The notes below the pieces were generated by a model that worked only from the letters and a program-made list of their open reading frames with translations, made no database searches and was not told the origin of the DNA. Positions 1-26,438 of a DNA stretch of 64,000 nucleotides are shown in pieces (within the stretch, counting starts at the first letter, position 1; every line of letters begins with the position of its first letter). Where the stretch lies: IMG/VR virus record IMGVR_UViG_3300030098_006079; one strand, 5' to 3'. Source of the DNA: a virus (lineage: Duplodnaviria > Caudoviricetes). The position numbers were made by a program, and so were the translations under genes.

Positions 1-1
1 A

Positions 2-241
2 TTGCTTGGTTATAAAGGCCCTGAGTATTATGATACTGGTATCATTTACTGTCCTTATATCCCGGTTATGGTACAGCGATCAATTGATCCTAATTCCTTC
101 TATCCGAAGGTTGGTATGTTGACACGTTATGGTGTTGTTGATCACCTCTTTGGTGCTTCTAACTACTATCATGTTGTTTTCGTACTTGGATTAGGAACCG
201 CAGTCGGTTCTGGTGCTGCTGCATACACACCATTCCAGTAA
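2..241 (+). CDS. 23: Major capsid protein (T4 gp23 family), C-terminal fragment
   Basis: GYKG..YDTGIIYCPYIPV...FYPKVGMLTRYG matches the gp23 C-terminal signature; truncated by window start; followed by a terminator. Confidence 0.9.
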   Translation: MLGYKGPEYYDTGIIYCPYIPVMVQRSIDPNSFYPKVGMLTRYGVVDHLFGASNYYHVVFVLGLGTAVGSGAAAYTPFQ

Positions 242-1226: not shown

Positions 1227-1758
1227 TAATCTCTATCATCTTATTATATCTACTCTCTACACTTCCTTCCAGTACATAAATATTAGGATACTTCCCTAAT
1301 ATCAATTCTTCATATAGTTTAATAATTTGACTTCTAAAACTCTCACTCATAGATCTTTCTCCATCATTGATAAGAGGAACATCATAAGGATTAGTATAGA
1401 AGATACAATCATACTTTTCTATATATCTACCTAATGCATAACTAAACATTTTATCTACAAACTCATTTACTTTACCTTGTATTCTAAAATATCTAGTATA
1501 AACAAAACCATCTACTATACAACGATCTAAGATATTGTTCATATCTTTACCGCTATAAGTAAATAAATTTTGAATATGATCAGCAAAAATAGCTAACTGC
1601 GTATCATTATAGTTTGAACCATCGTCGTTAATCTCAAAACCACCACGCCGGATACGTCTTGTAACCTCATCGACTGAGCCCCATGCATTTGACTCTAAGA
1701 ATTCGCGCAACAGAGTAGTTTTACCACTACTCTGTGCGCCTGTAAAAGAAACTAACAT
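1204..1758 (-). CDS. P-loop nucleotide kinase-like protein (AAA_28/NadR-like)
   Basis: N-terminal Walker A FTGAQSSGKTT, ILDRC motif, DGERS lid-like segment. Confidence 0.7.
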   Translation of the reverse strand: MLVSFTGAQSSGKTTLLREFLESNAWGSVDEVTRRIRRGGFEINDDGSNYNDTQLAIFADHIQNLFTYSGKDMNNILDRCIVDGFVYTRYFRIQGKVNEFVDKMFSYALGRYIEKYDCIFYTNPYDVPLINDGERSMSESFRSQIIKLYEELILGKYPNIYVLEGSVESRYNKMIEIIEDVKTR

Positions 1759-2108
1759 TATTTACCCCAGACACCATTATCGACTATCTGAGCGATTTTG
1801 CAATATAAACTTGAATCTTTCCATGCATCTTGAATAGGTTCATTAGCAGCTTCAGCAGTACGTTTCTTAATGACGAGATTAATGAGTCTCTGTACTTTAT
1901 CATTAACACGGAATACTAGTCCAGCTTTAGCAACTAAACGGCCATCCGGTTTAGATAAGTCCTGACCTACAGAAATATTAGTAGGGCCATAGTCGTATTG
2001 CTTATTAATAAATAGCTTGTATTCTTCTTCGAGAAGATCTCTCAACATTGCACATGTCTCAGGATAATCATTCTCTACTTCCGCCTTGATTTCAGTGTAA
2101 TCTTTCAT
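1758..2108 (-). CDS. Nucleotide-modification-associated domain protein (DUF1599/Nmad1-like)
   Basis: KQYDYG...GLVFRVNDKVQRL...D..KD...Y pattern; lies inside the base-modification operon. Confidence 0.7.
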   Translation of the reverse strand: MKDYTEIKAEVENDYPETCAMLRDLLEEEYKLFINKQYDYGPTNISVGQDLSKPDGRLVAKAGLVFRVNDKVQRLINLVIKKRTAEAANEPIQDAWKDSSLYCKIAQIVDNGVWGK

Positions 2109-2670
2109 TTAAAAAATTTATCCAAAGTTTTGTAGATTCAACATGAAGAGCTTTTTCTAGTTCTTCATATGTATTAAAGTTATTATCTATAATTGCATTT
2201 GCAACAATAGGACCATCATCGAGCTCGGGCGTTACCTTATGAATAACGCACCCAGCTCGATCATGTTTTGCTTCCCAAGCTTTTTTCTGAGGGTTAAAGC
2301 CTTTCAATTCTGGATAGATATCAATAGCGCCTGGATGACCATTATAGATGTTTGATGATCTAGTAAAGTCAGGAGGTAATATTCTCAGATACCCGTGCAA
2401 AGTAACAAACACCCCTTTAGCCCAATCATCATTAAGAATAGAATAGTTAAGAGCATCAGCTGCTTTAAGATAATCCATCTCTTTTGGCCATTTAGGTAAT
2501 CGTACAAACGGGAGACCTCCTGTTGACCTCTTATAGATCAATTCAATATTTGTACCTATATCTTCTTGTCTATTAGTAACAATAAGATCAGGCCATCTTT
2601 TGATCTGTTTAGAGATGTTTACAATTTCAGAACCAGTCTGACTATAAAATGCTACCCACTTCATTACCAA
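2092..2670 (-). CDS. PurN-like formyltransferase, probably DpdN-type preQ1 formyltransferase
   Basis: Formyl_trans_N motifs LHGYLRILP, NGHPG, GCVIHKVTPELDDGPIV; located between dpdA-like and queF genes. Confidence 0.8.
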   Translation of the reverse strand: MVMKWVAFYSQTGSEIVNISKQIKRWPDLIVTNRQEDIGTNIELIYKRSTGGLPFVRLPKWPKEMDYLKAADALNYSILNDDWAKGVFVTLHGYLRILPPDFTRSSNIYNGHPGAIDIYPELKGFNPQKKAWEAKHDRAGCVIHKVTPELDDGPIVANAIIDNNFNTYEELEKALHVESTKLWINFLNERLH

Positions 2671-3494
2671 TATCTTCTTTTAATAATTCTTTTGAACTGA
2701 CTTGTATTATACAAAATACGCTCTACTGCATCTTCATCAGGTTGCGCACCTATTAAGTCTGCTAACAGTTGTGATGGTTTATGATCTAGACCGAAGTCTC
2801 CATTATAGGTATAACCTAACAGACCTGCTACAACTGGATTAGATGTATCTAAGCTTCTAATATTATAGATATTATTATCTACATACCATCTAAACTCACT
2901 CGCAAGTGACGCACCTAACAAATGATGAGGTTTATTCCAGTCCCATTCTCCTTCGTCAATTAATCTTTTAACTAGATTCTGTCGTCCAGTGGATTGCCTT
3001 TTCAATTTAGCGTTTTCATCACAAATATGGCTAATGCCTGTAACATGATACATACTAAAATCGAAACTGATAGCGACATAATCCGCATTATTTTTCATAA
3101 AGCGATAACAATCTACTACCTCTGACCAAGTATCGCCTTGAACTGCTCCTATTCTAGCGCCTGGTAATTTACCATAGTTAGCTCGAAAATCTTTAAAATG
3201 ACTTATTGTCGCTGGTCCATTTTCAAGAACATCAGGGACAATATAATAATTAGGTTTAATCTTCTCACACCAAATAGCGTATTTGTCAGCATCAAACGCT
3301 TCTTTTAGTTCAAAGATAGAATTATCTAAGAGAATCTCTCCATTAGGTACTTTAGCTCTATATTTTTCTAGAAACCATTCTTTATATTCTTCTTGTTCTT
3401 CCATTAGATGGACTAAACAATATTGATAATCATTGTATTCTACCGATTCTGGTAGGAGAGCTATAGGAGATTCGTGCGATACCTTAATCGTCAT
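2664..3494 (-). CDS. dpdA: TGT-fold 7-deazaguanine DNA transglycosylase, DpdA-like (DpdA3-type suspected)
   Basis: LLDNSIFE, IVPDV, GAVQG, HHLLG, IRSLDTS motifs of TGT/DpdA barrels; no C-terminal Zn site visible; first gene of the queF operon. Confidence 0.72.
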   Translation of the reverse strand: MTIKVSHESPIALLPESVEYNDYQYCLVHLMEEQEEYKEWFLEKYRAKVPNGEILLDNSIFELKEAFDADKYAIWCEKIKPNYYIVPDVLENGPATISHFKDFRANYGKLPGARIGAVQGDTWSEVVDCYRFMKNNADYVAISFDFSMYHVTGISHICDENAKLKRQSTGRQNLVKRLIDEGEWDWNKPHHLLGASLASEFRWYVDNNIYNIRSLDTSNPVVAGLLGYTYNGDFGLDHKPSQLLADLIGAQPDEDAVERILYNTSQFKRIIKRRYW

Positions 3495-4869: not shown

Positions 4870-7254
4870 ATGAGTGTATATGTAAATGCAAACCCTGGTT
4901 CAGAACTTCAACCGAGAAAAGAATATTTCGGTAACTATCTTGGTATAGTCGTACAAAATAATGACCCAGATAAAGGCGGTAAGGTAAAAATATGGGTACC
5001 TCATATTTCCCCTACAGTGTATGAAAACTGGGATGAAAAAAATGAAGATAAATCATTTAAGTTTATTGGTAGAAATATCGATAGTGATATTACTGATATT
5101 GTAGAAGATTTAAAAAGAATACTTCCATGGGCTGAGTCTGCTTCTCCTATTATGGGAAGTTCTGCACCTGGTCGCTACAACGCTCACGATCAATTCGCTA
5201 CTATATCTGATACTAATAAACACTCAACTGCCTATCCTAAGTATGAAGAAGAAGGAGATCAACGATATAAATTAAATGATGATGGTATAGGTGAAAAACC
5301 AGCTCGTAAATATGAAGTACATTCTTTAAAGGTACATGATGCGTTCGCAGATAAAAACAAAGTTAACTTTAATAATTTAAATTTATATTCCTATAATTAC
5401 GTACCTTCTTCCTACTCTAATAGTGCAAAAGGTAGTTTTAGTATACCTAATGTAGGTGCACATGTATGGGTTTTCTTTAGTGAAGGGGATCCTAATAACC
5501 CTGTTTACTTTGCTACAACACACGGTACTGATGAATGGAAGTCTATACATAATAACTTTAACTCTCATGGTACAGACTATCCTGGTGCGTATGAAAACAC
5601 GTCTAAAGATTTAGATCCTAACTATAACCATAATACAGAGACGTATAGAAACAAATATGTTATAAATCAAAAAGGCGGTACAATTGAAATAGTAAGTACT
5701 GATAATAAAGAATCATTAAAATTTACACATTACTCTGGTTCGTTTAAAGAGTTTAATAATAAAGTTAATACTGAACTCGCAACAAATAATAACCAAAAAT
5801 TAGTACAAGGGGATGAGTTTTTTACAGTCAATGGTACTAAAAATGATTACGTTGGGAGAGATTATGATCAAATTGTTACCGGGGATTATTATAAGAAGAT
5901 TGGTAATTTAGAATATCAAATACATAAAGAGTGGAGAGATATAATGGAGACAATTGCTGATGCAAAGCAGTTGTTTGAGCAAAAGCGTACCGGAGTAGTT
6001 ACTGACACTAATCCGTTTATTAAAAAGAGTAGTGCTAAACAAACTAAAAGTGGTACTCCAGGGCCCTGCCCATTATGTAAGGAAACAACCACCAGAGATT
6101 TAATTTATGATAATTCATATGCGTTTACAAAAGTAAACCCTAATTATGAATATAAAAAAGGAGTACTTGTGTTTGATCATAGCGGAGAAATTACTTCTGC
6201 TAATTCAAATACAATGAGTAAACTAATAGCTCCAACCACATCGGGTAACTTTTTAGATGGAGGAGCATGTCCTGTGTGCGGTGGATCAGGGGAAAGTCCA
6301 TCAAGTTATAATGGACAATGGGACCCATCAGAAAAAGATACGCTTATTATCACTACACTCCGTGCACAAATCCAAAATGTAATTAATCTCGAAAAACAAT
6401 TAGGTATAGGTGGTAGTGAAATTATTAATGTATCAAAGCATAAGATAGAAAATATAGGTCTTATTTACAACGACTTTCCGTCGGTACGTATTGATGAAGC
6501 TGGTAAAATAGAGAACTATGAAACTAAAGTATTTCCTAAAGGGGTTGTTACAACTAAAAAAGAATCTGCTCTATTAGAGTATGTACATGTTGATGACTTC
6601 CCAGGTGGTGATTTTACTCAAAATATAGGTAACAAATGGAATGTATTAGTTGGTAGTGGTGGTGTATCTATTAAATCTACAGGTGGTGTAGATATTGGAG
6701 GTACTATAACTAACGTCGCGGGTCAGCAAGTTAATATTTCTTCTGAGTATGAAACTAACATTTCATCAAAGAGAGTTAATATCGCTGCTGAAATGCTCAC
6801 CTTACGTAATAAAAATAATAGACAAATTTTAGTTGACGGTAATCTAGGTGTTAATCAAAATGTTGTAATAGGTGGTAGTATGCATGTAGAAGGAGAGTTA
6901 AGTGTTCAGCATATTACTGCTCCTGTTGAGATACAAGAGACTGAACCAGTTGTAGCGTATAGTAAATTACTGACTGGTCTAGCGTTTGAGGCAACTATTA
7001 GCGGACACACTAAAGAAGGAACTGATGGTGCGAAAAATGGAGATTGTACAATAACCTTGAAAACAGATAGTAACGATAATTTAGTTAAAGCATATCCTCA
7101 CACCCATCCGTTCAAGAATGTGCCGCTCAAGTTAATGAAAGACAAAGATGAAGTACGTAAGGTAGGAGCCAAGCAAACAGACTTGCAAGGCCGTTCATCT
7201 GCAATCCCGGTCATACACGAACAAAAAACCGGTGAGACAGGTCCCACCGGTTAA
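4870..7254 (+). CDS. 5: Baseplate hub/central spike protein (gp5/VgrG-like, no lysozyme domain)
   Basis: OB-fold YLGIVVQNNDP..GKVKIWVP and SIPNVGAHVWVFFSEGDPNNPVYF; beta-helix repeats; C-terminal HTH(P) tip motif. Confidence 0.8.
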   Translation: MSVYVNANPGSELQPRKEYFGNYLGIVVQNNDPDKGGKVKIWVPHISPTVYENWDEKNEDKSFKFIGRNIDSDITDIVEDLKRILPWAESASPIMGSSAPGRYNAHDQFATISDTNKHSTAYPKYEEEGDQRYKLNDDGIGEKPARKYEVHSLKVHDAFADKNKVNFNNLNLYSYNYVPSSYSNSAKGSFSIPNVGAHVWVFFSEGDPNNPVYFATTHGTDEWKSIHNNFNSHGTDYPGAYENTSKDLDPNYNHNTETYRNKYVINQKGGTIEIVSTDNKESLKFTHYSGSFKEFNNKVNTELATNNNQKLVQGDEFFTVNGTKNDYVGRDYDQIVTGDYYKKIGNLEYQIHKEWRDIMETIADAKQLFEQKRTGVVTDTNPFIKKSSAKQTKSGTPGPCPLCKETTTRDLIYDNSYAFTKVNPNYEYKKGVLVFDHSGEITSANSNTMSKLIAPTTSGNFLDGGACPVCGGSGESPSSYNGQWDPSEKDTLIITTLRAQIQNVINLEKQLGIGGSEIINVSKHKIENIGLIYNDFPSVRIDEAGKIENYETKVFPKGVVTTKKESALLEYVHVDDFPGGDFTQNIGNKWNVLVGSGGVSIKSTGGVDIGGTITNVAGQQVNISSEYETNISSKRVNIAAEMLTLRNKNNRQILVDGNLGVNQNVVIGGSMHVEGELSVQHITAPVEIQETEPVVAYSKLLTGLAFEATISGHTKEGTDGAKNGDCTITLKTDSNDNLVKAYPHTHPFKNVPLKLMKDKDEVRKVGAKQTDLQGRSSAIPVIHEQKTGETGPTG

Positions 7255-13529: not shown

Positions 13530-15911
13530 ATGAAGTTCAGTAAACAAGCACAATCTGCTTTAGCAATTTCTAAAAGTTACGCAGAAGAATACAAATGTAG
13601 GTATGCAGGTACTGAACATTTACTCTTAGGTTTAATAGAGTGTGACGATGAATTCTTAAAAGAAACTTTCGAACGCTTAGAGGTTGATTTTATAGATTTA
13701 AAAGATGTTGTTGTTAGTATTTGTCAATTAGAAGAAAACAATAAACTTTTTAAATTAGATGCTGGTCCAAATTTTACCCCTCGTGTATTACGTATTATAG
13801 ATTTTGCAAAAGGTTTAGCTGAGAAGCTTTCAAAAAACAATGTAGATGTAATACATTTATTTTTATCTTTACTTTATGAAAATGATGGTGTTGCGACTTC
13901 TATTTTATCAGAATATGGATTAAATTTTAATAATGTTAAAACAGTTATACAAAAAGAAATAGGTAATTTTGATAATGAAACTAAAATTCAATCTTTATCT
14001 ATACCTGAAAGTCTCGAACCTTTTTTTAACGACCTTACATATCTAGCTGCAAAAAATGAACTACAACATACTTTTTCTCGTGACGCAGAATTTGATAAAA
14101 TATATTTAGTGCTTGGTAAGAAGCATAATACAAATATTATTATTAGTGGTGAGCCTGGTGTTGGAAAAAGGTCTGTAGTTTATGAACTCGCAAAACGTAT
14201 TACAAAAAAACTCACCCCACCTCATTTACAGAACAAAAAAATTCTTGAATTAAAATTAAAAACTCTTATTAGCGGAACAAAATTTAGAGGAGATTTTGAA
14301 TCAAGAATTGATACTCTTCATGAATATCTAAAAAAGAATAATGATATTATTTTATTTATTAATGATATAGCTCTTATTACTAGACTTGAAGGTACAACAA
14401 ATATAGAAGAATATTTTAGTGAACTGTTTAATAGAGATGATATTAATTTTATTGGTACGTGTACAGCAGATGACTATAAAAAATATATTGATGATATTAC
14501 TACTATAAGTTCTAACTTTGAAAATATTATAGTTAAACAAACAAGCAATAAAGAGACGAAAGAGATTTTAAACACTATGATACCTACATATGAGAAATAT
14601 CATAATGTTAAATTTGAGCGCGATATTATAGATAATGTTATAGATTTATCTAGCCGATATATTGTAGATAAAAGTCAACCTTCCTGTGCATTAGATCTAC
14701 TAGATGAGTGTGGCTCATATATTAAAAACCAAATAGGTAGTACATCAGAACAATTGGTACAGTTACAACAAAAAATAGATAAATTAAATGAACAAAAGCT
14801 TGAAGCAGTAAAATCTTATGATTTCGAAACTGGTCTTAAATTATTAAGAAGAGAGACTACATTATCTAATAAGTTAAAAAAGGAACTCACTGACCGTAAG
14901 CAAGTTGAATTTGATAAAATTATAACTCGCTCGATAGTTAATAGAATTGTGAGTACTAAAACTGGTATACCACTATCAGATATATCAGGAAGTAGCTTAC
15001 CTGACTTAAATAAAGTCCAGAAAAAATTAACCGACAAATATGTATCTCAGAAAAAAGCTATCGATTCTATACTGTATCATTTTAAGAGAGTTAAAACTGG
15101 ATTACAAGACCCAAATAGGCCACTTGGATCATTTCTATTTATAGGGCCTACTGGTGTAGGTAAAACATATTTATGTGAGCTTATTTCTGAATACTTTTTT
15201 TATAATAAACAAAACTTTTTAAAAATAGATATGTCAGAATATATGGAACCTCATTCAGTTAGTAAATTGATTGGGTCTCCTCCAGGTTATGTTGGTTATG
15301 GTGATAGGTCTGTTTTATGCGATTTTATTAAAAACACTCCATACAGTTTAATATTACTTGATGAAATTGAAAAGGCTCATCCAGATGTTGTTAATATATT
15401 TCTACAAGTTTTAGATAAAGGTGAATTAACTGATAGTGTAGGTAGAAAAATAAATTTAAAAAATTGTATTATAGTATTTACTAGTAATATTGGTGCTGAT
15501 TTATTTGATAAAAACGCAATTGGTTTTGGTAGTTCGGCTATTAGTTCTATGGATTTAGAAAACTCGTTACAGAAATTTTTTAAACCTGAGTTTTTAAATA
15601 GATTATCTGAAATTATTAGATTTGAGCATTTAGATCAAGATGACATATATAATTTAGTTGATATCGAAACAAAAAAATTCGTTGCAAAATTACAGCAAAG
15701 TAACAATATTTTGTTTGTGTTAGATGATGATGCGCGTGAGTACATAGCTGAACAAGGATATAGCCGCAAATATGGAGCTCGATTCCTTAAGAGGTTTTTC
15801 GAGAAACATATTGAAACAGAAATAGCGACTCATATTATCCGAAGTAAAACTAAGCTCAAAAAAATCACTTGCAATTACTCCTCTAATAAGTTAATATTTA
15901 CCACATGCTGA
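13530..15911 (+). CDS. clpC: ClpC-like AAA+ chaperone/unfoldase
   Basis: Two Clp_N repeats, degenerate D1, UVR-like coiled coil, intact D2 (GPTGVGKT, DEIEKAHPDV), ClpP-docking IGF loop. Confidence 0.88.
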   Translation: MKFSKQAQSALAISKSYAEEYKCRYAGTEHLLLGLIECDDEFLKETFERLEVDFIDLKDVVVSICQLEENNKLFKLDAGPNFTPRVLRIIDFAKGLAEKLSKNNVDVIHLFLSLLYENDGVATSILSEYGLNFNNVKTVIQKEIGNFDNETKIQSLSIPESLEPFFNDLTYLAAKNELQHTFSRDAEFDKIYLVLGKKHNTNIIISGEPGVGKRSVVYELAKRITKKLTPPHLQNKKILELKLKTLISGTKFRGDFESRIDTLHEYLKKNNDIILFINDIALITRLEGTTNIEEYFSELFNRDDINFIGTCTADDYKKYIDDITTISSNFENIIVKQTSNKETKEILNTMIPTYEKYHNVKFERDIIDNVIDLSSRYIVDKSQPSCALDLLDECGSYIKNQIGSTSEQLVQLQQKIDKLNEQKLEAVKSYDFETGLKLLRRETTLSNKLKKELTDRKQVEFDKIITRSIVNRIVSTKTGIPLSDISGSSLPDLNKVQKKLTDKYVSQKKAIDSILYHFKRVKTGLQDPNRPLGSFLFIGPTGVGKTYLCELISEYFFYNKQNFLKIDMSEYMEPHSVSKLIGSPPGYVGYGDRSVLCDFIKNTPYSLILLDEIEKAHPDVVNIFLQVLDKGELTDSVGRKINLKNCIIVFTSNIGADLFDKNAIGFGSSAISSMDLENSLQKFFKPEFLNRLSEIIRFEHLDQDDIYNLVDIETKKFVAKLQQSNNILFVLDDDAREYIAEQGYSRKYGARFLKRFFEKHIETEIATHIIRSKTKLKKITCNYSSNKLIFTTC

Positions 15912-16868: not shown

Positions 16869-19118
16869 ATGAATGTAGTTAAACGCGATGGAAGAACGGA
16901 AGAATTTGACGCTAACAAGATCCACGAGGTGTTGTTTTGGGCTACAAAGGACATTAAGGGGGTCAGTGTCAGCGATATCGAAATTAATGCAAAGCTGCAA
17001 GTGTTTGATGGTATTAAGTCTTTTAATATACATCAATTATTAATTCAATCTGCTGCAGATCTTATTTCAGAAGATAATCCCAACTATCAAATAGTTGCGG
17101 CGAACTTACTCAATTATTATTTACGAAAACAAGTCTTCGGGGTTTCGGATAATATGCCTTCCTTACTTGATGTTATTAAAAAGAATATTAAGATCGGGGT
17201 ATATGATCCAGAACTACTAGAACAGTATACCGAAGATGAACTTGATCAGTTAGATAACTATATTAAGCATAATAGAGACTATCTTTTTGTATATGCTGGG
17301 CTCCAGCAATTAGTAGACAAATACTTATTAAAAGATAGGCAATCCAATAAGGTGTATGAGACACCACAATATATGTATATGCTTATCTCAATGGTTCTAT
17401 TTAGTGATCAGAACAAAGATGTACGTTTACGTAAGATTAAAGCCTTTTACAATGACACAAGTACATTTAAAACCTCTTTGCCTACACCTGTTATGTGTGG
17501 TGTCCGTACTCCATCACGTCAATACAGTTCGTGCACACTGATAGATGTAGGCGATTCTTTACCTTCTATATTTCATTCTAATACAGCTGTAGGTTATTAT
17601 ACAGCTAATAGAGCTGGTATTGGTTTGAATATGGGAAGAGTTCGTGCTGTAGGTTCTAAGATAAGAAATGGTGAAGTAGTACATACTGGAGTTATTCCGT
17701 TTCTTAAAATGTTTGAATCTACTACAAAATGTTGTACACAGAATGGAGTACGTGGTGGTTCATCTACAACACACTTTCCTTTCTGGCATAAGGAGATTCA
17801 GGAAATCTTAGTACTAAAAAATAATAGAGGTACTGATGATAATAGAGTTCGTAAAATGGATTACTCAATTCAATTTAATAAGCTTTTTTACAAGCGCTTT
17901 ATTGAGGATAAATCTATTACTCTGTTTAGCCCTCATGATGTTCCTGATCTGTACGACGCGTTTGTTGCTGGTTCAGATTCTTTTTATGAATTATATGAAC
18001 AGTATGAATCATCTAGAAAGGTTTCGAAGACGAAAATATCTGCTCGTAAGTTGTTTATGCAGTTTTGTCAAGAACGTATAGAAACTGGTAGGATGTATGT
18101 AATGAATATGGATCATGTTAATGATCATAGTTCATTTCTTGATAGTGTTACTATGTCTAACCTATGTCAGGAAATTACATTACCTACTACTCCTATAGAA
18201 CATATAGACGATGAAGAAACTGGTGAGATAGCTCTGTGTGTTCTCTCAGCTATTAACGTTGGTTCTATTAATAAATTAGATCAATTAGAAAAGATATGTG
18301 ATAATATAGTAACCGCTTTAGATTACATTATTGAGAATCAATTATATCCAGTTAGCGCTGCTCTCAATATGAAAAAGCGTCGAAGTATTGGAGTAGGTAT
18401 TACTAACTTCGCATACTACTTAGCGAAGAATGGAGTTTCATACGAGGATAAAGAGGCTCTTAAAGTTACAGATGAATTAGCGGAAGCTATTCAATACTAT
18501 CTGCTTAAAGCATCTAATAATCTTGCGAAAGAAAGAGGTAAGTGTGAGTGGTTTGATCGTACGAAATATAGTAAAGGTATATTACCAATTGATACTTACT
18601 GTAAAGAAGTAGATAATATTGTTAAAAGAAAATATACATACGATTGGGAAAAGCTTCGGAAAGATATTAAGGAGTATGGTTTAAGAAATAGTACTCTTAC
18701 GGCTCTAATGCCTTGTGAGAGTTCTTCCTTGGTGACTAACTCTACAAACGGTATTGAGCCTCCTAGAAGTTTAGTAACCGTCAAGAAATCTAAGCAGGGA
18801 CTTATCCCGCAGGTAGTTCCTGAGATACAAAAACTCAAGAACAAATATAGTCTTGCGTATGAAATGTCTGACAACAAGGGATATATAAACATTTGCGGAG
18901 TATTGCAAAAATATTTTGATCAAGCTATATCTGCAAATCATTATTACAATTTTAGTAAGTATGAAGAGAACAATCTCCCGCTTTCGGTTGTAGCTAAGGA
19001 TATCCTATATTCCTATAAGGTTGGTCTGAAAACATTATATTATGCTAATACTGATGATGGTAAAACTGATAATGCTCCTGAAGAAAGTGATTGCCCTGGC
19101 GGTGCATGTAAGCTATAA
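16869..19118 (+). CDS. nrdA: Class Ia ribonucleotide reductase alpha subunit with ATP cone
   Basis: VVKRDG ATP cone, SSCTL, SNLCQEI, ALCVLSAIN, C-terminal CPGGACKL; no intein. Confidence 0.97.
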   Translation: MNVVKRDGRTEEFDANKIHEVLFWATKDIKGVSVSDIEINAKLQVFDGIKSFNIHQLLIQSAADLISEDNPNYQIVAANLLNYYLRKQVFGVSDNMPSLLDVIKKNIKIGVYDPELLEQYTEDELDQLDNYIKHNRDYLFVYAGLQQLVDKYLLKDRQSNKVYETPQYMYMLISMVLFSDQNKDVRLRKIKAFYNDTSTFKTSLPTPVMCGVRTPSRQYSSCTLIDVGDSLPSIFHSNTAVGYYTANRAGIGLNMGRVRAVGSKIRNGEVVHTGVIPFLKMFESTTKCCTQNGVRGGSSTTHFPFWHKEIQEILVLKNNRGTDDNRVRKMDYSIQFNKLFYKRFIEDKSITLFSPHDVPDLYDAFVAGSDSFYELYEQYESSRKVSKTKISARKLFMQFCQERIETGRMYVMNMDHVNDHSSFLDSVTMSNLCQEITLPTTPIEHIDDEETGEIALCVLSAINVGSINKLDQLEKICDNIVTALDYIIENQLYPVSAALNMKKRRSIGVGITNFAYYLAKNGVSYEDKEALKVTDELAEAIQYYLLKASNNLAKERGKCEWFDRTKYSKGILPIDTYCKEVDNIVKRKYTYDWEKLRKDIKEYGLRNSTLTALMPCESSSLVTNSTNGIEPPRSLVTVKKSKQGLIPQVVPEIQKLKNKYSLAYEMSDNKGYINICGVLQKYFDQAISANHYYNFSKYEENNLPLSVVAKDILYSYKVGLKTLYYANTDDGKTDNAPEESDCPGGACKL

Positions 19119-19127
19119 TAAGAACAG

Positions 19128-20201
19128 ATGAAGAGTATTATTAATAAAGATAATGTCGACACCACTAAGCAGCCGCTGTTTTTTGGTGCTGGGTTAAATT
19201 TGCAGAGATACGATAAGTATCGCTACAAGAAAATCTATGACTTATTTCTCCAGCAATTAAGTTTCTTTTGGAGACCAGAGGAAGTAGATTTATCTGGTAA
19301 AGAGAAAAACGATTATGAAACTCTTACGGATCATCAAAAGTTTATCTTTACCAAGAACCTTGGTTATCAGATTCTTTTAGATTCTGTTCAAAGTAGAGGT
19401 ATCAGTCATCTATTAGAAGATTGTAGTAATCCAGAATTTGAAGCCTTTGCAAAGACTTGGGAGTTTTTTGAGACGTTACATAGTTACTCTTATACATATA
19501 TTATTAAGAATGTCTATCCGAATCCTTCAGAAGTATTTGATAATATCTTATCTGATCCAGAAATTATTAAACGAACAACGTCTGTTACGAAATATTATGA
19601 TGATCTAATTGAAACTATTCCTAATGAATCGGTTGATGATAGGAAGAAGAAACTTTATTTAACTTTAGTTAGTATTAATATTTTAGAGGGTATTAGATTT
19701 TATGTTTCGTTTGCATGTTCATATTGTTTTGCTCAGAATAAAACAATGGAAGGTAACGCAAAGATTATTTCATTAATTAATCGTGACGAGAATCTTCATT
19801 TAGCTTCTACTCAAAACCTATTGAAATATTTACGAGATAATGAAGAGGAAGGATTCCAGCATATTGTAGAGCAATGTCGACCTATAGTTAAGACAATGTT
19901 TGAAGATGCTGCTAAAGAAGAGATGGAATGGGCTAGATACCTTTTTAAAGATGGTTCTATGTTAGGTCTTAATGATGAGATCTTAATTCAATATATGAAG
20001 CATTTATGTAATCGTAGAACTAAAGCAGTTGGTGTTGAAAATGTATTTGAAGATACTCCTAATCCTATTCAATGGATTAAAAACTGGACTGAAAGTAAAC
20101 ACGTACAGGTCGCTCCTCAAGAGACACAGATAGAAACCTATAAGGTAGGTTCATTCAAACAAGACACGTCAGAGACAGATTTTTCTGACTTTAATTTTTA
20201 G
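19128..20201 (+). CDS. nrdB: Class Ia ribonucleotide reductase beta subunit
   Basis: FFWRPEEV, ETLHSYSY, LEGIRFYVSF, RDENLH, VAPQE. Confidence 0.97.
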   Translation: MKSIINKDNVDTTKQPLFFGAGLNLQRYDKYRYKKIYDLFLQQLSFFWRPEEVDLSGKEKNDYETLTDHQKFIFTKNLGYQILLDSVQSRGISHLLEDCSNPEFEAFAKTWEFFETLHSYSYTYIIKNVYPNPSEVFDNILSDPEIIKRTTSVTKYYDDLIETIPNESVDDRKKKLYLTLVSINILEGIRFYVSFACSYCFAQNKTMEGNAKIISLINRDENLHLASTQNLLKYLRDNEEEGFQHIVEQCRPIVKTMFEDAAKEEMEWARYLFKDGSMLGLNDEILIQYMKHLCNRRTKAVGVENVFEDTPNPIQWIKNWTESKHVQVAPQETQIETYKVGSFKQDTSETDFSDFNF

Positions 20202-20610: not shown

Positions 20611-20898
20611 ATGAAGAAAATATTTAACATCATTAAGGAATATAAGAAAGAGATCGGAGGTTTACTTCGACATGCTGCTACTATAGCTGGAGGTGTTTTA
20701 ATCGCTAAAGGTTCTCTTACTACTGATAGTTTCCATTTGATTTTAGGTGCTTCTACAAGTATAATCGGTACAGGTTGGTCGTTTGCTAATAAGATTTCTC
20801 AAAGAAAAGAAGTCAAAGTTGCTTTATCTACGGACCCAGTGACCGGTGATGTTACTCGTAAATTTAACGAGGAAACAAAAACTTGGGAAAGCGCTTAA
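20611..20898 (+). CDS. Putative two-TM holin (Pam3 gp28-like)
   Basis: GGLLRHAATIAGGVLIAKG...IIGTGWS; ATAAATA at 20598. Confidence 0.6.
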   Translation: MKKIFNIIKEYKKEIGGLLRHAATIAGGVLIAKGSLTTDSFHLILGASTSIIGTGWSFANKISQRKEVKVALSTDPVTGDVTRKFNEETKTWESA

Positions 20899-20901
20899 GA
20901 T

Positions 20902-21253
20902 AATGCATACAGGTTATCTTTATATTATAAGCAATAGATCTTGGCCTGGGTGGATAAAGGTAGGAACTACTAAGAATCTAAAAACTCGTCTGCAAACTTA
21001 TCAGACGGGTTCTCCTTTTCGAGATTATGAGATTTTATATTCTATAAAGCATCCAGATTACCTGAAAGCAGAAAAGAATATAAAAATACAAATGGCTCAT
21101 TTTGCTAAACAGATAAAAAATGAGTGGTATGAAGTAGATATAGAAATCGCTAAAGTTAGATTATCAGAACAATTAGACAATTACTTTTATGGTGAATGTG
21201 ATTATGAAGAAAAATATGATCACATACCAGTAAGAGATTTTATTTATAAATAA
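20902..21253 (+). CDS. GIY-YIG-like protein (T5orf172 family)
   Basis: GYLYII...IKVGTT....RL..YQTGSP...AE......EWY; start re-called at MHTGY. Confidence 0.75.
21245..21252 (+). promoter_or_regulatory. T4 late promoter
   Basis: Exact TATAAATA before the lysozyme gene. Confidence 0.7.
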
Positions 21254-21258
21254 TTATA

Positions 21259-22080
21259 ATGACATTTGATCAATTAAATGAAGCAAATGAGATTATTTTG
21301 CAAGAAGGACCTTTTGCGAAGGCTCTTGCAGCATTAGGTATTTTAGGAGCTACCTTAGGTAGTCCGGGCGAAGTACAAGCCAAAATGCCTACTCCAATAA
21401 CTCAAGCCATTAAACAAGATCAATCTTATTACGATTATATTGCGCCGAGTGAAGGTAAAGGTAAAGCTGGTCGCCCCGGGTACGCGTACAAAGACCACAA
21501 AGGTTACTTAACCGTTGGAGTAGGCCATCTTGTTTTACGTAACGACAAAGCCTTACAACAAGTAGCGGGAAGAGATTATAATAGCGTTATAAGAGGTCGT
21601 GTACCGTTATCTGATAGACAAATGGAAGCTTTATTTAATATAGACGTACAAGCAAAAATTGCTGCTGCCAGACGAGCATTACCAGCATTTGACTCCTACC
21701 CGCAGTACTTACGTAATGCTATTGTAGATGGTTTCTTTAGAGGAGATTTATCAGGAAGTAAAAATACTTTAGGTTTAATGAATAAAGGCCAATGGAAAGC
21801 AGCCGCAAAAGAATATCTCAATCATGCTGGTTATAGAACTTCAAAAGAAGAAGGAACAGGTGTAGCTGGTAGGATGGAACGTAATGCAGCTGTGTTTGCT
21901 ACTTATGGTGGTGGTTCATCTCCCCAACAACCAGTAAAGACCGACTTCTATACAGTTAAGTCTGGAGATACATTAAGTAAGATATCTAAAATGACAGGTA
22001 AGTCAATTAAAGATATAATGCAGAAGAATAGAATTACCAACCCGAATAAGATTAGTGTTGGTCAAAAGTTATCTATTTAG
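21259..22080 (+). CDS. T4-type lysozyme (GH24-like) with C-terminal LysM
   Basis: SEG...YKDHKGYLTVGVGH (E-D-T triad pattern); YTVKSGDTLSKIS...NRITNPNKISVGQKL. Confidence 0.85.
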   Translation: MTFDQLNEANEIILQEGPFAKALAALGILGATLGSPGEVQAKMPTPITQAIKQDQSYYDYIAPSEGKGKAGRPGYAYKDHKGYLTVGVGHLVLRNDKALQQVAGRDYNSVIRGRVPLSDRQMEALFNIDVQAKIAAARRALPAFDSYPQYLRNAIVDGFFRGDLSGSKNTLGLMNKGQWKAAAKEYLNHAGYRTSKEEGTGVAGRMERNAAVFATYGGGSSPQQPVKTDFYTVKSGDTLSKISKMTGKSIKDIMQKNRITNPNKISVGQKLSI

Positions 22081-22498
22081 CGCCTCGTTCTTGCCAATTG
22101 TAAGATTTTTCATCCGTTGTTATCGGACCACCTTTTGCCCATGTATGACAAGCTCTCGCACTGTGACATTTAAAGTGATGCATCCAACAGTAACCTAATC
22201 TACCATCGTCATCAGATGTTTCTCCAGGCATACAAGCATCCATTCTAGGAGAAATATCAAACGCTACACAGTTTCCGCACAGAGATGCTCTTGCAGCCCT
22301 TTCGGTTGTCTTCCAGTACCTAGCGATTCTTTTCCAATAATTACCGGGCTCACTTACATTTAATGGTCCGTAATTATAATCTCGTATTGTTGCATCTCTA
22401 TTCTTAGTGTTTAATGCTAGGTCTTGAGTTGCCGCTGGACAATCCATTCCAGCTTTTTCTAGTATTGTTTGTATTAATGATTCGAATAGTTTTGTCAT
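22073..22498 (-). CDS. Cys/His-rich metal-binding protein (HiPIP-like spacing)
   Basis: LCGNCVAF...GYCWMHHFKCHSARACHTW. Confidence 0.6.
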   Translation of the reverse strand: MTKLFESLIQTILEKAGMDCPAATQDLALNTKNRDATIRDYNYGPLNVSEPGNYWKRIARYWKTTERAARASLCGNCVAFDISPRMDACMPGETSDDDGRLGYCWMHHFKCHSARACHTWAKGGPITTDEKSYNWQERGAK

Positions 22499-22499
22499 T

Positions 22500-22895
22500 T
22501 TACCAGTCCTTACACGCTTGATATCTGGCCGTACCTGGTTTAGCAGAACTACATTTATGTCTTGCTCTAAAGCTTTTCCTTCTTTTAGTATTTGCCTTAC
22601 CAGATACTTTCACACCTTTTTGACCCCAATGTATTCTCTTATAACCTTTACCGTCAGGGTTCTTAACACACTTCATCCACTTCTTACCTTTCGCAGTACT
22701 ACTAGCTTTCTTAGTAGACTTAGTACATCTTGCTGCTTCATCAATATCTTCTTTAGAAATCTTAGCAGCTTGCTTCTTCATCTGCTTTCTATACTTTGGA
22801 TCATTCTTCCATTTACTAGAAACTTTACCCTTCTTTTTAGCTTTGTTAATATTATCCCAAAGACCTTCGTATAGTTTATCGAATTCTGGTGTCAT
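22500..22895 (-). CDS. Basic hypothetical virion protein
   Basis: Very K/R-rich; RRKSFRARHKC...ARYQACKDW. Confidence 0.65.
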   Translation of the reverse strand: MTPEFDKLYEGLWDNINKAKKKGKVSSKWKNDPKYRKQMKKQAAKISKEDIDEAARCTKSTKKASSTAKGKKWMKCVKNPDGKGYKRIHWGQKGVKVSGKANTKRRKSFRARHKCSSAKPGTARYQACKDW

Positions 22896-22899
22896 ATCG

Positions 22900-22911
22900 T
22901 ATAAATATTTA
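22900..22911. promoter_or_regulatory. Back-to-back late promoters
   Basis: TATAAATA on + (22900-22907) overlapping TAAATA on - (22906-22911) between divergent genes. Confidence 0.6.
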
Positions 22912-22912
22912 T

Positions 22913-23263
22913 ATGGAAACTACTAAAAAATTAGATAGTTACTTAAATGAATTGCATTGTCATTGTGACGGTAAGTCTCATGGTAAGAAGAAAAAGAAAA
23001 AAGTAAACGAAGATAATGCTGAACCTGATGGTGCAGGTATGGCTAAAACTGATTTATTTCATCTAGCTAACACATCTAAAGAACTACATGATATGTTAGA
23101 TGATGAATATCCATTAGATGATTGGATGGAAGCTAAATTAACAAAAGCAGCTGATTATGTTAAGTCTGTATATCAATCTGTTGCATACGATATAAAGGGT
23201 GAAGGGGAAGAAACTACAAACGAACATACTACAATTTATATTACTACTCCTGATGCCAAATAA
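22913..23263 (+). CDS. Hypothetical head-associated-type protein
   Basis: GMAKTDL...DDWMEAKLTKAADYVKSV; start re-called at METTK. Confidence 0.6.
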   Translation: METTKKLDSYLNELHCHCDGKSHGKKKKKKVNEDNAEPDGAGMAKTDLFHLANTSKELHDMLDDEYPLDDWMEAKLTKAADYVKSVYQSVAYDIKGEGEETTNEHTTIYITTPDAK

Positions 23264-24119
23264 TTTTAAAACATATTTCGAAGAAAATAATTATTATAAT
23301 GATACTCTTCATCCTGATTTTTGGGATGAATTTGAGTTTAAAGAGGATATACTTAAGCCAATTTTAAAAATTGTTGACGACTTCGTACAGGACGATGATC
23401 ATATTTCTGCTGAGATGATAGAAGATATACAGTTAACTGGCTCATTAGCCAATTATAACTATTCAGAGTACTCTGATTTAGATGTACATATACTTTTAGA
23501 CTTTGCTGATATTAATAAAGATGAAGATTTAGTAAAGCGTGCGTTAGATGGAAAGAGATTTATTTGGAACCTTAGACATGATATAAAATTTAATGGCCAT
23601 GAAGTTGAGTTATATTTTCAAGATATTCATGAACCTCATGTGGCTTCCGGTCTATTTAGTTTATCTGGCAATAGATGGATTAAAAAGCCTAAATACGAAA
23701 AACCGGAAGTAGATCACGAGGACGTAGTAAAAAAAGCTGAGTCGTTTAAAAAAGAGCTTGATCTCTTAGCTGATGCATTAGATAATATTAGCGACGAGAA
23801 AGAATTTAGTCTTATTAATAGACGTGCAAAGAAGCTTAAAGATAAGATTATGAAGATGCGTAGAGAAGGTCTCGCTAGTAAAGGAGAGTTTTCTGTTGAG
23901 AATCTCGCATTTAAAAATTTACGTAATGATCAGACTATAGCTAGATTAAATGATCTAATTATTAAGTCATATGATCTTATGTATTCAAAAGAAGAGTTAA
24001 AAGAGAAGGTTGGTTTAGAAGAATGGGAAAAAGCTATGTTGAGTGCTTTAGGTACCAAAAACGATAAAAACGCTCAACATCAAAAAGAAAAACCAAAAAG
24101 ATATCCTATAGGTATATGA
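23253..24119 (+). CDS. Pol-beta-superfamily nucleotidyltransferase
   Basis: LTGSLANYNYSEYSDLDVH (GS-x10-DxD) and HEVELY; start re-called at MPNNFKTYFEE. Confidence 0.78.
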   Translation: MPNNFKTYFEENNYYNDTLHPDFWDEFEFKEDILKPILKIVDDFVQDDDHISAEMIEDIQLTGSLANYNYSEYSDLDVHILLDFADINKDEDLVKRALDGKRFIWNLRHDIKFNGHEVELYFQDIHEPHVASGLFSLSGNRWIKKPKYEKPEVDHEDVVKKAESFKKELDLLADALDNISDEKEFSLINRRAKKLKDKIMKMRREGLASKGEFSVENLAFKNLRNDQTIARLNDLIIKSYDLMYSKEELKEKVGLEEWEKAMLSALGTKNDKNAQHQKEKPKRYPIGI

Positions 24120-25183
24120 AAACATATAAACAATATTTTAAAGAGAATTATATTAAGTTTATTGATCCTGATACTGGTAAAGAAGTAAAGCGTAGAGTAT
24201 CAGATACTTTTATTAATAGTATTTTAAAAAAGAAATCTGACAAGTTCGACTCTGCGTCGTATTTAAAAAAGATTAGAGATCATGGAGTAAAAACTGGAGC
24301 ATTTGATAAGGGAGAAAATATTGACTCTAGAGATGTTGTTGCATTTTTTGACTTTATAAAAGAGGCAGTACCTCGCAATCAACTACATAATTTTTTAAAA
24401 GAATTACCAAGAAAAGATTTACAAGCTCGTTTTAAAGAGGAGCTTTCTAGGTCTAAAAAATTTAGCTTTTTAGATGTTTTAGATACTACGTGTGACCCGT
24501 CTTGCAAATTCGCTGATGCATTAGCAAGTAATCCAGTTGTACTTAAAATTAGACCAGCGTCTGATAGATATAAGACTCGTGGTGCAGCTGGTCCTGGTGA
24601 AGCATTTTTAGCTTTTATGTTTTCTGGTAGAAAACCATCTGGGGCTGGAGACTTAGAATTAGACGATATGATTGTTGAGTTAAAAGCCAATGGTGGTCGA
24701 ATAGCTAAAGACTTAGATTTTCGAGGCCAAGGAAGATTATTAAGAAGTTTTTATCCAGGTATTAAGAGTACGACACAAGAAGCCTTACCTTTAATTTTAC
24801 GTCATTTTAATCAATCAGAGACGGATTTAAGTATGTTAGATTTTCTATCTGCAGTTTCTGGAGTACCATCTGGTTTAGACGATCTTGATATTAAATATTT
24901 TGCCAAGAGACCGATATATGATCTCAAAAAATACCCTACATACAGAGAGTTAATACAATTGTTAGGACCAATACAAATGAAAAATTACTTCACTAAAATC
25001 GCTGACTTTAATACAATTGCTATATTTGATAATGATATAATTATAGGTTTTAGTAGAGATATTTTACAGCAAAAAACCTCAGTTCAAATACAAAAAGAGT
25101 TTGCAAATAGTGGTGTTATAATAGGAGCAAAACCAGCAGGTGGAAGTGCATATGATGCATCAGGGTTTACAATTAATGTATGA
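24116..25183 (+). CDS. Hypothetical protein with possible PD-(D/E)xK nuclease core
   Basis: GPGEAFL...GAGDLELDDMIVELKANGG; leader MKTYKQYFKE. Confidence 0.55.
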   Translation: MKTYKQYFKENYIKFIDPDTGKEVKRRVSDTFINSILKKKSDKFDSASYLKKIRDHGVKTGAFDKGENIDSRDVVAFFDFIKEAVPRNQLHNFLKELPRKDLQARFKEELSRSKKFSFLDVLDTTCDPSCKFADALASNPVVLKIRPASDRYKTRGAAGPGEAFLAFMFSGRKPSGAGDLELDDMIVELKANGGRIAKDLDFRGQGRLLRSFYPGIKSTTQEALPLILRHFNQSETDLSMLDFLSAVSGVPSGLDDLDIKYFAKRPIYDLKKYPTYRELIQLLGPIQMKNYFTKIADFNTIAIFDNDIIIGFSRDILQQKTSVQIQKEFANSGVIIGAKPAGGSAYDASGFTINV

Positions 25184-25395
25184 ACGCAATCGGATTATAT
25201 GATACAATGGTAATGGGTTATAGGGTTAAAGTACAACCTTATAAAATTACTATATTCGATGAAGACGGTTCAATTGAGGGTACTCAAATACCTAATAAGT
25301 TAGTAAGATATATTATACATGAAGGTTTTTGCGATGCTTGGCTTACAGAGAGCATGGCTATAAAGGTTAACGTTTATAGGATTAAAGATATATGA
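25180..25395 (+). CDS. Hypothetical protein
   Basis: 71-aa ORF with 4-nt overlaps on both sides. Confidence 0.6.
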   Translation: MNAIGLYDTMVMGYRVKVQPYKITIFDEDGSIEGTQIPNKLVRYIIHEGFCDAWLTESMAIKVNVYRIKDI

Positions 25396-26438
25396 TAACA
25401 TACAAAGAATATTTTTTATTTAATGAAGGTGGTGCAGGAGGTCATATGCAGCATCCTTTTGATGTTGATTCAGTAAACTCTGGTCAAGATCTAATAGATT
25501 TTTTTAATAGAGCGCACGATAGTTTAAGTAACAATCCTGGATCATTAAAAATAGATGGCGTTAATGCTTCTATAAAATTTATAGGTAATGAATTCGCTTT
25601 AGATAGAGGAAGTAATAAACCAATAGACGTTGAAGGTATTACTATATCAAGATTAGGTGAAAGGTTTCCTGAAGGTCATGGAATGATTAAAGTTGGTACT
25701 GAAGTGCTTTCGTTTTTTAACGACGCGTTAGGTAACATACAACAAGAATTACAATCATTAGGCATATTAGATAACCCGAATGTGCTTTTTAATTTAGAAT
25801 ATGTTGATGGTAGTACTAATGTTCTAGAATATGATGAAAAATTTATCGCTATACATGGTTTATTAGAAATGTATCAAGCTACACCTCGTAGACGTGCTTC
25901 GAAAGAAATTAATTATAATCCTGAGGTAATGCAATCGTTGATAGAAAAATTAAACCAAGCTGGAACATTTAAGGTTTTCGGATCTGTTGACGTAGGTGTC
26001 GGAGAAAGGCCTAATTATGAAGCGGTATTAGCTCAAAACGTAGAAATACCATATGAACAATCTAGTAATGAAGTTAAACCGTTAAAGCAATGGTTGCAAG
26101 AGTTAAACTTACCTAAGAGAGTCAAGTTAAAGAGGCTAGATGGTACACCGAGAGAAGCAATAAGCAAAGCAAACTACATGGATATTATCTTACAGCAAGT
26201 ACCTGTTGATACATTATATGAGAACCCAGACGAACAAAGAGCTGCTATTGATGGAGCTATTGTTTATCATGCAACAAGATTTTTAGGTAAAGCCTTACTC
26301 GAAACTCTCGATTCACCAATGGGTCGTGTCGACTCTCATGAAGGAGTTGTTATAAGAGATCCGAGAATTGATGTACGCCCGGTAAAAATTACAGGTGACT
26401 TTATCATTCAAGGTTTACAAAGTACATTCCGTAAATAG
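25392..26438 (+). CDS. Ligase/capping-enzyme-fold protein (DUF6267-like)
   Basis: GHMQHPFD, LKIDGVNA (KxDG), HEGVVIRD, VKITGDF. Confidence 0.6.
   Translation: MITYKEYFLFNEGGAGGHMQHPFDVDSVNSGQDLIDFFNRAHDSLSNNPGSLKIDGVNASIKFIGNEFALDRGSNKPIDVEGITISRLGERFPEGHGMIKVGTEVLSFFNDALGNIQQELQSLGILDNPNVLFNLEYVDGSTNVLEYDEKFIAIHGLLEMYQATPRRRASKEINYNPEVMQSLIEKLNQAGTFKVFGSVDVGVGERPNYEAVLAQNVEIPYEQSSNEVKPLKQWLQELNLPKRVKLKRLDGTPREAISKANYMDIILQQVPVDTLYENPDEQRAAIDGAIVYHATRFLGKALLETLDSPMGRVDSHEGVVIRDPRIDVRPVKITGDFIIQGLQSTFRK

Follow-up and report, generated by a model that had tools for sequence, protein, structure and literature searches.

The 64,000-nucleotide stretch of DNA analyzed here (IMG/VR record IMGVR_UViG_3300030098_006079, hereafter the window) belongs to a T4-like myovirus that is marine and uncultured. 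Its positions 21259-26438 hold a block composed of a lysozyme-LysM gene on the plus strand, two minus-strand genes, and five overlapping or abutting plus-strand genes (Table 1, in which genes are named by the position of their start codon). Three adjacent plus-strand genes, 23253, 24116, and 25392, encode proteins beginning with MPNNFKTYFEE, MKTYKQYFKE, and MITYKEYFLFNE, respectively, as read from the sequence, and they have the start pattern [FY]K.[FY]F..E in common. This report concerns these N-terminal leaders of 10-12 residues, their likeness to the leader of the internal proteins of phage T4, and the proteins that they head. A preliminary description of the block had quoted these three N-termini and, as weaker cases, MTFDQLNE, MTPEFDKLYE, and MTKLFE, and it was found that all six are exact in coordinates and strand.

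The T4 N-termini used for comparison were taken from the T4 record NC_000866, in which ipII and ipIII start with MKTYQEFIAE and ipI with MKTFKEFTST.... The leaders of the three window genes closely resemble these T4 starts, as the preliminary description had claimed: in the 24116 leader, M-K-T-Y and the final E are identical to the T4 leader, and the Y/F and F/I exchanges are conservative. The Glu residue is at leader position 10 in 24116, 11 in 23253, and 12 in 25392. A scan for the leader, of the kind that the preliminary description had proposed as a check, was done with the pattern [FY][KRQNSE].[FY][FILY] at no more than 12 residues from the start, on about 62 window genes, 150 genes of a 119-kilobase (kb) relative (G001), and 60 genes of a 44-kb relative (G002), covering about 180 kb. 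Besides a lipoprotein signal and one unrelated match, the motif was found in 23253, 24116, and 25392 only, and so these three genes stand out across the window and both relatives. In T4 itself, gene 57B (NC_000866 73952-74410; locus L029), which adjoins ipI, starts with MMEFKDF, and this start resembles MLEFKDYF..., the leader of the ligase-like gene of one relative.

Between the window and relative G002, which are colinear, nucleotide identity is 77-95%, with 90% in the first 4.1 kb. Directly to the left of the region matching the window, G002 encodes a gp21-type protease of the Peptidase_S77 family (2e-29), a Gp23 capsid protein (5.8e-90), and a scaffold-like protein with many hydrophobic-x-Glu sites, F-N-E and I-N-E among them. 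The end of the Gp23 capsid gene occupies window positions 1-241, and the protease gene, as seen in G002, is located outside the window.

Copies of the leader gene start encoding MITYKEYFLFNE have four synonymous differences and no amino-acid change, and therefore selection acts on the peptide. The leaders of the 24116 and 25392 proteins are predicted by AlphaFold to be outside the folds of these proteins. The 25392 model has a predicted local distance difference test (pLDDT) score of 89 overall, with residues 1-13 below 50 and a confident fold behind them. In the 24116 model, which scores 83 overall, the part below 50 is residues 1-10, coinciding exactly with the leader, and a confident fold follows, with its first strand at residue 12.

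The gene order of the block is preserved in the IMG/VR relatives, and the leader is found there in front of exchanged bodies. Several BLAST-unrelated bodies, each behind MKT[FY]K.[FY]F, occupy the place of gene 24116, and the place of gene 25392 is taken by either of two ligase-like bodies (348 and 416-418 amino acids (aa)) behind the same leader, MITYKEYFLFNE, or a similar one. An additional gene, of 152 aa and with the start MKKFKQFFNE, is present in one relative. When the window was compared with G002 by blastn, homology was lost 24 nucleotides (nt) into gene 24116 and was back at the next gene; it was also lost directly after codon 13 of gene 22913 and was back 55 nt later.

The wider occurrence of the leader was evaluated by a scan of IMG/VR with a DNA pattern coding for the first eight residues, MKT[FY]K[QE][FY][FI], which gave at least 85 matches. 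Among the matches listed, 70 lie in open reading frames (ORFs) of at least 60 aa, 69 of them at the ORF start. The residue at position 10, which the pattern leaves free, is Glu in 56 of the 70, and 39 of the 70 have Ser, Ala, or Gly at position 11, like the T4 site (IAE then Ala). The 66 bodies behind these leaders fell into 49 BLAST clusters. As a control, 596 gigabases of bacterial and archaeal genomes were scanned with the same pattern, and 85 stretches were obtained, of which 24 were close to an ORF start and 7 of these 24 had Glu at position 10; several of the control matches were signal peptides or were on tiny phage-like contigs. Peptidase_S77 was found in all six complete leader-bearing viral genomes tested and in 10 of 15 large contigs. 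We also noticed in several viral contigs mini-ORFs of 15-17 codons that have a leader-like start followed by a stop codon, for example, MKTFKEYFTTYFTMY (Table 1).

Homologues of gene 23253 were found in four phages, each with an S77 protease: Maribacter phage Molly, Caulobacter phage Cr30, and the cyanophages S-CRM01 and S-CREM2. The S-CREM2 homologue, ORF156, was found in the proteome of CsCl-purified virions (PMC10665884, Table 3). Other, non-structural proteins in the S-CREM2 virions start with MKDFDSFLEE (S-adenosylmethionine (SAM) hydrolase), MKRFDAFLTE (kinase), and MKNFSSFLTE (cytidylyltransferase), and two hypothetical virion proteins start with MKDLHSFLTE and MQTFSMFFSE. When the annotated genes of the whole S-CREM2 genome were searched with the regular expression M..[FLYIW]..[FYLW][FLIVMY].E, five of the six matching genes, namely those for these five proteins, were represented in the virion relative to a background of 52 of 221 (hypergeometric P = 0.003), a value that is indicative only because the expression was composed after some of the sequences had been seen. 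The cytidylyltransferases of P-RSM1, Syn19, and P-SSM7 start with MKKFSAFL[STN]E-A, and a cytidylyltransferase was the sole enzyme detected in S-SZBM1 virions (PMC9146016). The S-CREM2 paper makes no mention of a leader (PMC10665884); the S-CREM2 and S-SZBM1 papers do not tie the virion enzymes to an N-terminal leader, and one of them deems the virion location unproven (PMC10665884, PMC9146016).

Variant N-termini were seen in two of these phages. The virion-detected 'Cas9-like nuclease' of S-CREM2 (ORF12; OR473000 7704-10313) has the leader-like LRFASFMAE only after 16 residues, which means that the annotation begins too early or that the leader is longer. In Maribacter phage Molly_1 (NC_062751 9676-18353; locus L016), at least five neighboring genes have a different common start, M..[LI]K[ST]L[VI]E[ST], examples of which are MNLKTLVET, MNLKSLVES, and MKTTELKSLIES. 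The homologue of window gene 23253 is among these genes, and the Molly_1 N-terminus may be a lineage-specific version of the leader. The family match of the Molly S77 protease is marginal (27.1 bits).

Table 1. Positions of the block genes, promoter-like motifs, and other features in the window, with related loci in IMG/VR.
Feature	Position	Strand	Remarks
Gp5-like baseplate hub	4870-7254		
Lon-like ATP-dependent protease	13530-15911		
Ribonucleotide reductase	16869-20201		
Late-promoter-like motif TATAAATA	21245..21252	+	6 nt before ATG 21259; overlaps upstream stop codon
Lysozyme, 273 aa	21259..22080	+	C-terminal LysM; N-terminal hydrophobic segment (residues ~19-35)
Cys/His-rich protein, 141 aa	22073..22498	-	Start MTKLFE
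Very basic Lys/Arg-rich protein (phrog_7595), 131 aa	22500..22895	-	Leader-like MTPEFDKLYE (22866-22895)
Minus-strand region and relatives L001, L006, L007, L014	22073-22895	-	Forms of 131, 141, 149, 183, 189, and 193 aa
Divergent intergenic gap, 17 nt	22896..22912		Contains most of palindrome TATAAATATTTATA
Acidic protein, 116 aa	22913..23263	+	Leader-like start METTKKLDSYLNE (22913-22951)
Pol-beta-type nucleotidyltransferase-like protein (phrog_36119), 288 aa	23253..24119	+	Leader MPNNFKTYFEE (23253-23285)
Hypervariable-slot protein, 355 aa	24116..25183	+	Leader MKTYKQYFKE (24116-24145); PD-(D/E)XK-like GDL...VELK motif
Conserved 71-aa protein without leader	25180..25395	+	Translationally coupled between variable and ligase-like genes
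Covalent nucleotidyltransferase, RNA-ligase-like, 348 aa	25392..26438	+	Leader MITYKEYFLFNE (25392-25427); motifs and fold match
(T)ATAAATA sites	3532, 16386, 20598, 21245, 22900, 28103, 43404, 54183	+	
(T)ATAAATA sites	7714, 22913	-	
Mini-ORFs	IMG/VR loci L046, L048, L056, L069, L093, L106		

The protein encoded by gene 25392 has good support as an RNA-ligase-like enzyme. Residues K53, I54, D55, G56, E136, E317, G318, and K332, which make up KIDG and other motif residues, are invariant in 30 family sequences. With the 25392 model, the best VIA-align match was T4 RNA ligase 1 (Rnl1; Z 8.9, root-mean-square deviation 3.8, 184 aligned residues), and 27 of the next 33 matches were ligases or capping enzymes; Foldseek gave weak matches only (E 0.016), and an exhaustive aligner was needed. 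No match was found for this protein in Pfam or among PDB sequences, nor by tblastn in cultured phages. The ligase-like family (P0006-P0120) has more than 500 members, and hundreds of metagenomic proteins combine it, in either order, with a cytidylyltransferase domain (PF01467). These fusions suggest that the two enzymes serve one pathway. Where the ligase-like domain is in first place, the protein nearly always starts with M[KR]TFK[QE]... and this start ends in LNE-GGAAGHM.

The start of gene 23253 is an internal ATG of the ORF 23199-24119. Its product contains a G-S...D-x-D motif, TGSLANYNYSEYSDLDVH, and a moderate case can be made that it is Pol-beta nucleotidyltransferase-like: no Pfam match was obtained at E 0.01, the nearest Atlas clusters (0.93-0.94) have PF01909 in 19-47% of members, and one cultured-phage homologue is annotated as a nucleotidyl transferase. 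The 24116 protein has invariant G178-D-L and E188-L-K190, and its body is weakly suggested to be restriction-nuclease-like. The best Z value in a structure search was only 3.2, the matches including HinP1I, HhaI, and MspI, and the named restriction-enzyme clusters among its Atlas neighbors (at 0.79) are taken as a lead only. A confident nuclease identity was dropped, since the structural matches reached Z 3.2 only. PDB sequence searches with the three leader proteins (23253, 24116, and 25392) gave no meaningful match, and in Pfam six of the eight block proteins matched nothing.

The preliminary description had seen the bodies of the block as enzymatic, naming a ligase, a nucleotidyltransferase, a nuclease, and a lysozyme. 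The ligase likeness was borne out by the invariant motifs and the structural match to T4 Rnl1. For 23253, the nucleotidyltransferase assignment is plausible by motif and Atlas neighbors but lacks a Pfam match at E 0.01, and for 24116 the nuclease assignment is weakly supported, by the GDL...VELK motif and by faint structural and Atlas likenesses.

The minus-strand proteins are small and rich in Lys, Arg, and Cys, and about five modules are reshuffled among them in order and combination between close relatives. They are more like the T4 internal proteins than like enzymes, and the 131-aa protein is a candidate counterpart of the T4 internal proteins. From residue 10 on, this 131-aa protein is homologous to an IMG/VR protein whose own start is the canonical MKTFKEFFTE, and therefore the weak call of MTPEFDKLYE as a leader is supported. 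Residues 1-14 of the 141-aa protein, MTKLFESLIQTILE (22457-22498), resemble the N-terminus MTSLFDQKVEEILEK of an unrelated module in relatives. This piece of 14-15 residues is dropped where the module lies within a longer protein, and therefore it is possibly a leader of a second type. On the plus strand, gene 22913 (true start ATG 22913, within the ORF 22889-23263) is a candidate for a fourth leader gene, judged from its N-terminus, which the preliminary description had missed.

The 21259 protein matches LysM (2.6e-14) and several endolysin PHROGs, and its Phage_lysozyme score of 21.5 bits is just below the cut-off of 22.3 bits, in line with the lysozyme body described previously. It is most likely an ordinary endolysin anchored by a signal or membrane segment and outside the cargo, as judged from its domains and hydrophobic segment. 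Its start, MTFDQLNE, is not a leader of the capsid-targeting sequence (CTS) class because a hydrophobic anchor comes next. The lysozyme as packaged cargo was set aside on account of the anchor, although two L-x-E sites in this protein leave that reading some likelihood. Of the three weaker leaders that had been proposed, MTPEFDKLYE was supported, but MTFDQLNE proved to be the start before a membrane anchor and MTKLFE part of a different 14-residue piece. A T5orf172/GIY-YIG-like gene of the homing-endonuclease type (20846-21253, +) adjoins the lysozyme gene and has its stop codon inside TATAAATA. Elsewhere in the window there are giant fiber genes and, at 309-3494 (-), genes for a GTP cyclohydrolase and a thymidylate-kinase-like enzyme with their neighbors. 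A search of cultured-phage DNA with the whole block gave only a 200-nt match, in huge uncultured phages.

The transcription of the block was evaluated from its promoter-like motifs. The motif TATAAATA heads three units, namely gene 21259, the minus-strand operon 22895-22073, and the plus-strand operon 22913-26438. Between the two operons, the 14-nt palindrome TATAAATATTTATA (22900-22913) is TATAAATA on both strands, one copy per operon, located 5 nt upstream of ATG 22913 (+) and 10 nt upstream of ATG 22895 (-). Genes 23253, 24116, 25392, and 22498 are without a TATAAATA of their own, and each overlaps or abuts the upstream gene, with ATGA overlaps at 24116, 25180, and 25392. The overall count of TATAAATA, 7 (+) and 10 (-) versus about 7 expected per strand, indicates no enrichment. 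For six of these 17, however, the distance from the end of the motif to the called start codon behind it is 5-10 nt (16399, 21259, 22913, 54200, 7698-, and 22895-), versus about 0.1 expected. When the shorter ATAAATA was used, ten genes were found to have the motif ending 5-11 nt before the start, including fiber and baseplate genes. Because (T)ATAAATA is only 5-11 nt from the start codon, the late messages would be almost leaderless, without room for a Shine-Dalgarno sequence. The position of the motifs near start codons, including those of structural genes, makes it plausible that the block is expressed late, as packaging would require. The preliminary description had placed such promoters before the leader genes, and this is correct for the heads of the three transcription units but not for each gene; a TATAAATA promoter before every gene was rejected because only three units have one and the overall frequency is at chance. 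A scan of the block for sigma-70-type promoters gave 32 sites versus 36.7 expected and was uninformative.

Taken together, we consider it fairly likely that the block is a divergent pair of late operons of a marine T4-like myovirus, most products of which have a capsid-targeting leader of the T4 internal-protein type. By analogy with T4, the capsid probably takes up the leader proteins and delivers them to the cell together with the DNA. In such a pathway, late transcription would start from the (T)ATAAATA motifs at 22900/22913, the leader would dock each protein onto the scaffolding core during prohead assembly, a gp21-type protease would cut after the Glu at residue 10 (24116), 11 (23253), or 12 (25392), and the mature proteins would be retained in the head until they pass into the cell together with the DNA. 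The putative cargo would consist of the RNA-ligase-like nucleotidyltransferase, the Pol-beta-type nucleotidyltransferase-like protein, the product of a fast-swapping slot that is here a possible restriction-endonuclease-like protein, and, from the other strand, small very basic modular proteins resembling the T4 internal proteins. A role after injection in RNA repair, or in host takeover and counter-defense, would be a guess. The proposal of head-packaged, injected enzymes in the preliminary description is partly supported, by the leader likeness, the modularity, the viral specificity, the co-occurrence with the protease, the disorder of the leader, and the S-CREM2 proteome; it does not hold for the lysozyme or for MTKLFE, and the nuclease call is weak.

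Several points weigh against this interpretation. Packaging and cleavage in the window phage are argued by analogy. Three positions ahead of the presumed cut, the leaders have Phe, in comparison to Leu or Ile in the T4 consensus, and the residue after Glu is Asn in two of the three leaders, and so not Ala, Ser, or Gly in those two, and Gly in the third. The AT-rich codons and ATGA overlaps of the window genome favor starts with Met-Lys or Met-Ile. A hydrophobic-hydrophobic-x-Glu-Gly-Gly sequence is conserved also where the ligase-like domain sits inside a fusion, and therefore the Glu may belong to the enzyme and not to a cut site; furthermore, many ligase-like homologues have the cytidylyltransferase domain in front and are without a leader. 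As to the virion evidence, some of the matching N-termini were known when the S-CREM2 expression was composed, and the S-CREM2 authors caution that abundant proteins may co-purify with virions (PMC10665884).

Some of these points would suit an explanation in which the shared N-terminus is another signal, such as a translation-initiation or regulatory element or a degradation tag for, e.g., a Lon-like enzyme, and the proteins are intracellular only. This seems unlikely to us, although starts in ATGA overlaps with AT-rich codons, the Lon-like ATP-dependent protease encoded by the phage, the leaderless ligase-like homologues, and the analogy on which packaging in the window phage rests are all compatible with it. 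A signal of that kind would not account for conservation at the level of the peptide with synonymous variation, for the reach of the leader into phages of different base composition, e.g., cyanophages, or for the enrichment of leader-bearing proteins in the S-CREM2 virion proteome. Furthermore, Glu10 followed by a small residue fits a protease site among the IMG/VR matches listed, and the leader is close to one that was experimentally proven to target the T4 capsid.

The window and G002 cease to be homologous 24 nt into 24116 and after codon 13 of 22913, with resumption at the next conserved gene, and this raises a different explanation: the conserved 5' codons could be a recombination handle only, used for the exchange of cassettes between conserved gene starts, with a peptide that has no function. 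The hypervariability of the 24116 slot is as would be expected from such a handle. We regard this explanation as improbable, however, because the peptide pattern heads families that are about 50% identical and is present in phages without DNA similarity, the interchange of Tyr and Phe together with synonymous changes indicates selection on the peptide, and the enrichment of Glu10 among the IMG/VR matches listed is not imposed by the search pattern. The T-even phages combine this architecture with proven targeting, and therefore recombination and targeting are not exclusive. That the N-terminal residues are an integral part of the mature enzyme, with a T4 likeness due to chance or composition, is hardly credible: LxE-GGAxGHM is conserved even where the ligase-like domain is internal, but the aromatic part (TFKxY) is missing from the internal versions, and the leader is unstructured (pLDDT <50) in both AlphaFold models, heads 49 unrelated body clusters among the IMG/VR matches listed, and is almost absent at ORF starts from cellular proteomes.

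Injected proteins act ahead of any phage gene expression and are therefore prime candidates for counter-defense and takeover. To our knowledge, outside the T-even phages such proteins have been found only through proteomics of cultured phages. Returning to capsid targeting, we consider the chances evenly balanced that the 10-residue T4 leader serves as an address tag conserved throughout the T4 superfamily, in cyanophages, in myoviruses of marine and fresh waters, and in uncultured lineages, and that the injected set, readable from the genome, is dominated by enzymes and encoded in hypervariable arms-race slots, unlike the small inhibitors of the T-even phages. If true, this set would include RNA-ligase-like enzymes, nucleotidyltransferases, cytidylyltransferases, kinases, SAM hydrolase, and restriction-like nucleases, and the recurrence of the cytidylyltransferase, kinases, and SAM hydrolase in cyanophage virions would be explained. 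Provided that the leader is a reliable mark of cargo, sequence would suffice to predict what thousands of uncultured T4-like phages inject. The variable slot behind the constant leader would be a place to seek new anti-defense or takeover functions, and the leader itself is a potential portable packaging tag for non-E. coli phages.

In the T4 internal proteins, the leader is the sole common part and directs packaging (PMC3012670, PMC5694885, PMC12373910). The CTS of IPI, IPII, and IPIII goes back to Mullaney & Black 1996, as cited in the same three papers, and the T4 leader has already been used to find internal-protein genes in T-even phages (PMC3012670, PMC5694885, PMC12373910). A literature search that excluded subscription journals found no paper in which either marine T4-like phages or the enzymes in cyanophage virions are linked to the T4 leader. 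The window resembles the T4 system in the 10-residue leader MKT[FY].[EQ][FY]..E ending in Glu, in the conservation of the leader alone among unrelated proteins at hypervariable loci, and, within the lineage, in the gp21-type protease, the scaffold rich in hydrophobic-x-Glu, and the gp23 capsid. It differs in that the predicted window cargo is mostly enzyme-like and of 30-40 kDa, whereas the T4 cargo consists of small restriction inhibitors, and in having Phe, where T4 has Ile or Leu, three residues before Glu. The host and phage lineage are also far from the T-even phages.

Another T4 protein, Alt, is an enzyme that enters the T4-type head by way of an N-terminal propeptide, which is processed, and that the phage delivers together with its DNA (PMC5694885). 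It is an ADP-ribosyltransferase, unlike the ligase-like, Pol-beta nucleotidyltransferase-like, and possible nuclease proteins of the window. Giant phages like phiKZ and SPN3US have ejection proteins with propeptides that are thought to target them to the prohead and that are removed after Glu by a T4-related protease, but these propeptides are mostly longer than 100 residues and have no common short tag (PMC5694885). The virion enzymes of the cyanophages S-CREM2, S-SZBM1, and S-CRM01 comprise cytidylyltransferase/nicotinamide mononucleotide adenylyltransferase (NMNAT)-like proteins, kinases, and SAM hydrolase (PMC10665884, PMC9146016). They resemble the window proteins in a 10-residue leader, MK.F..FL.E, in the homology of ORF156 to 23253, and in the cytidylyltransferase, the same domain that is often fused to the ligase-like family of the window. 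The window leader is nearer to the T4 leader than to this cyanophage variant.

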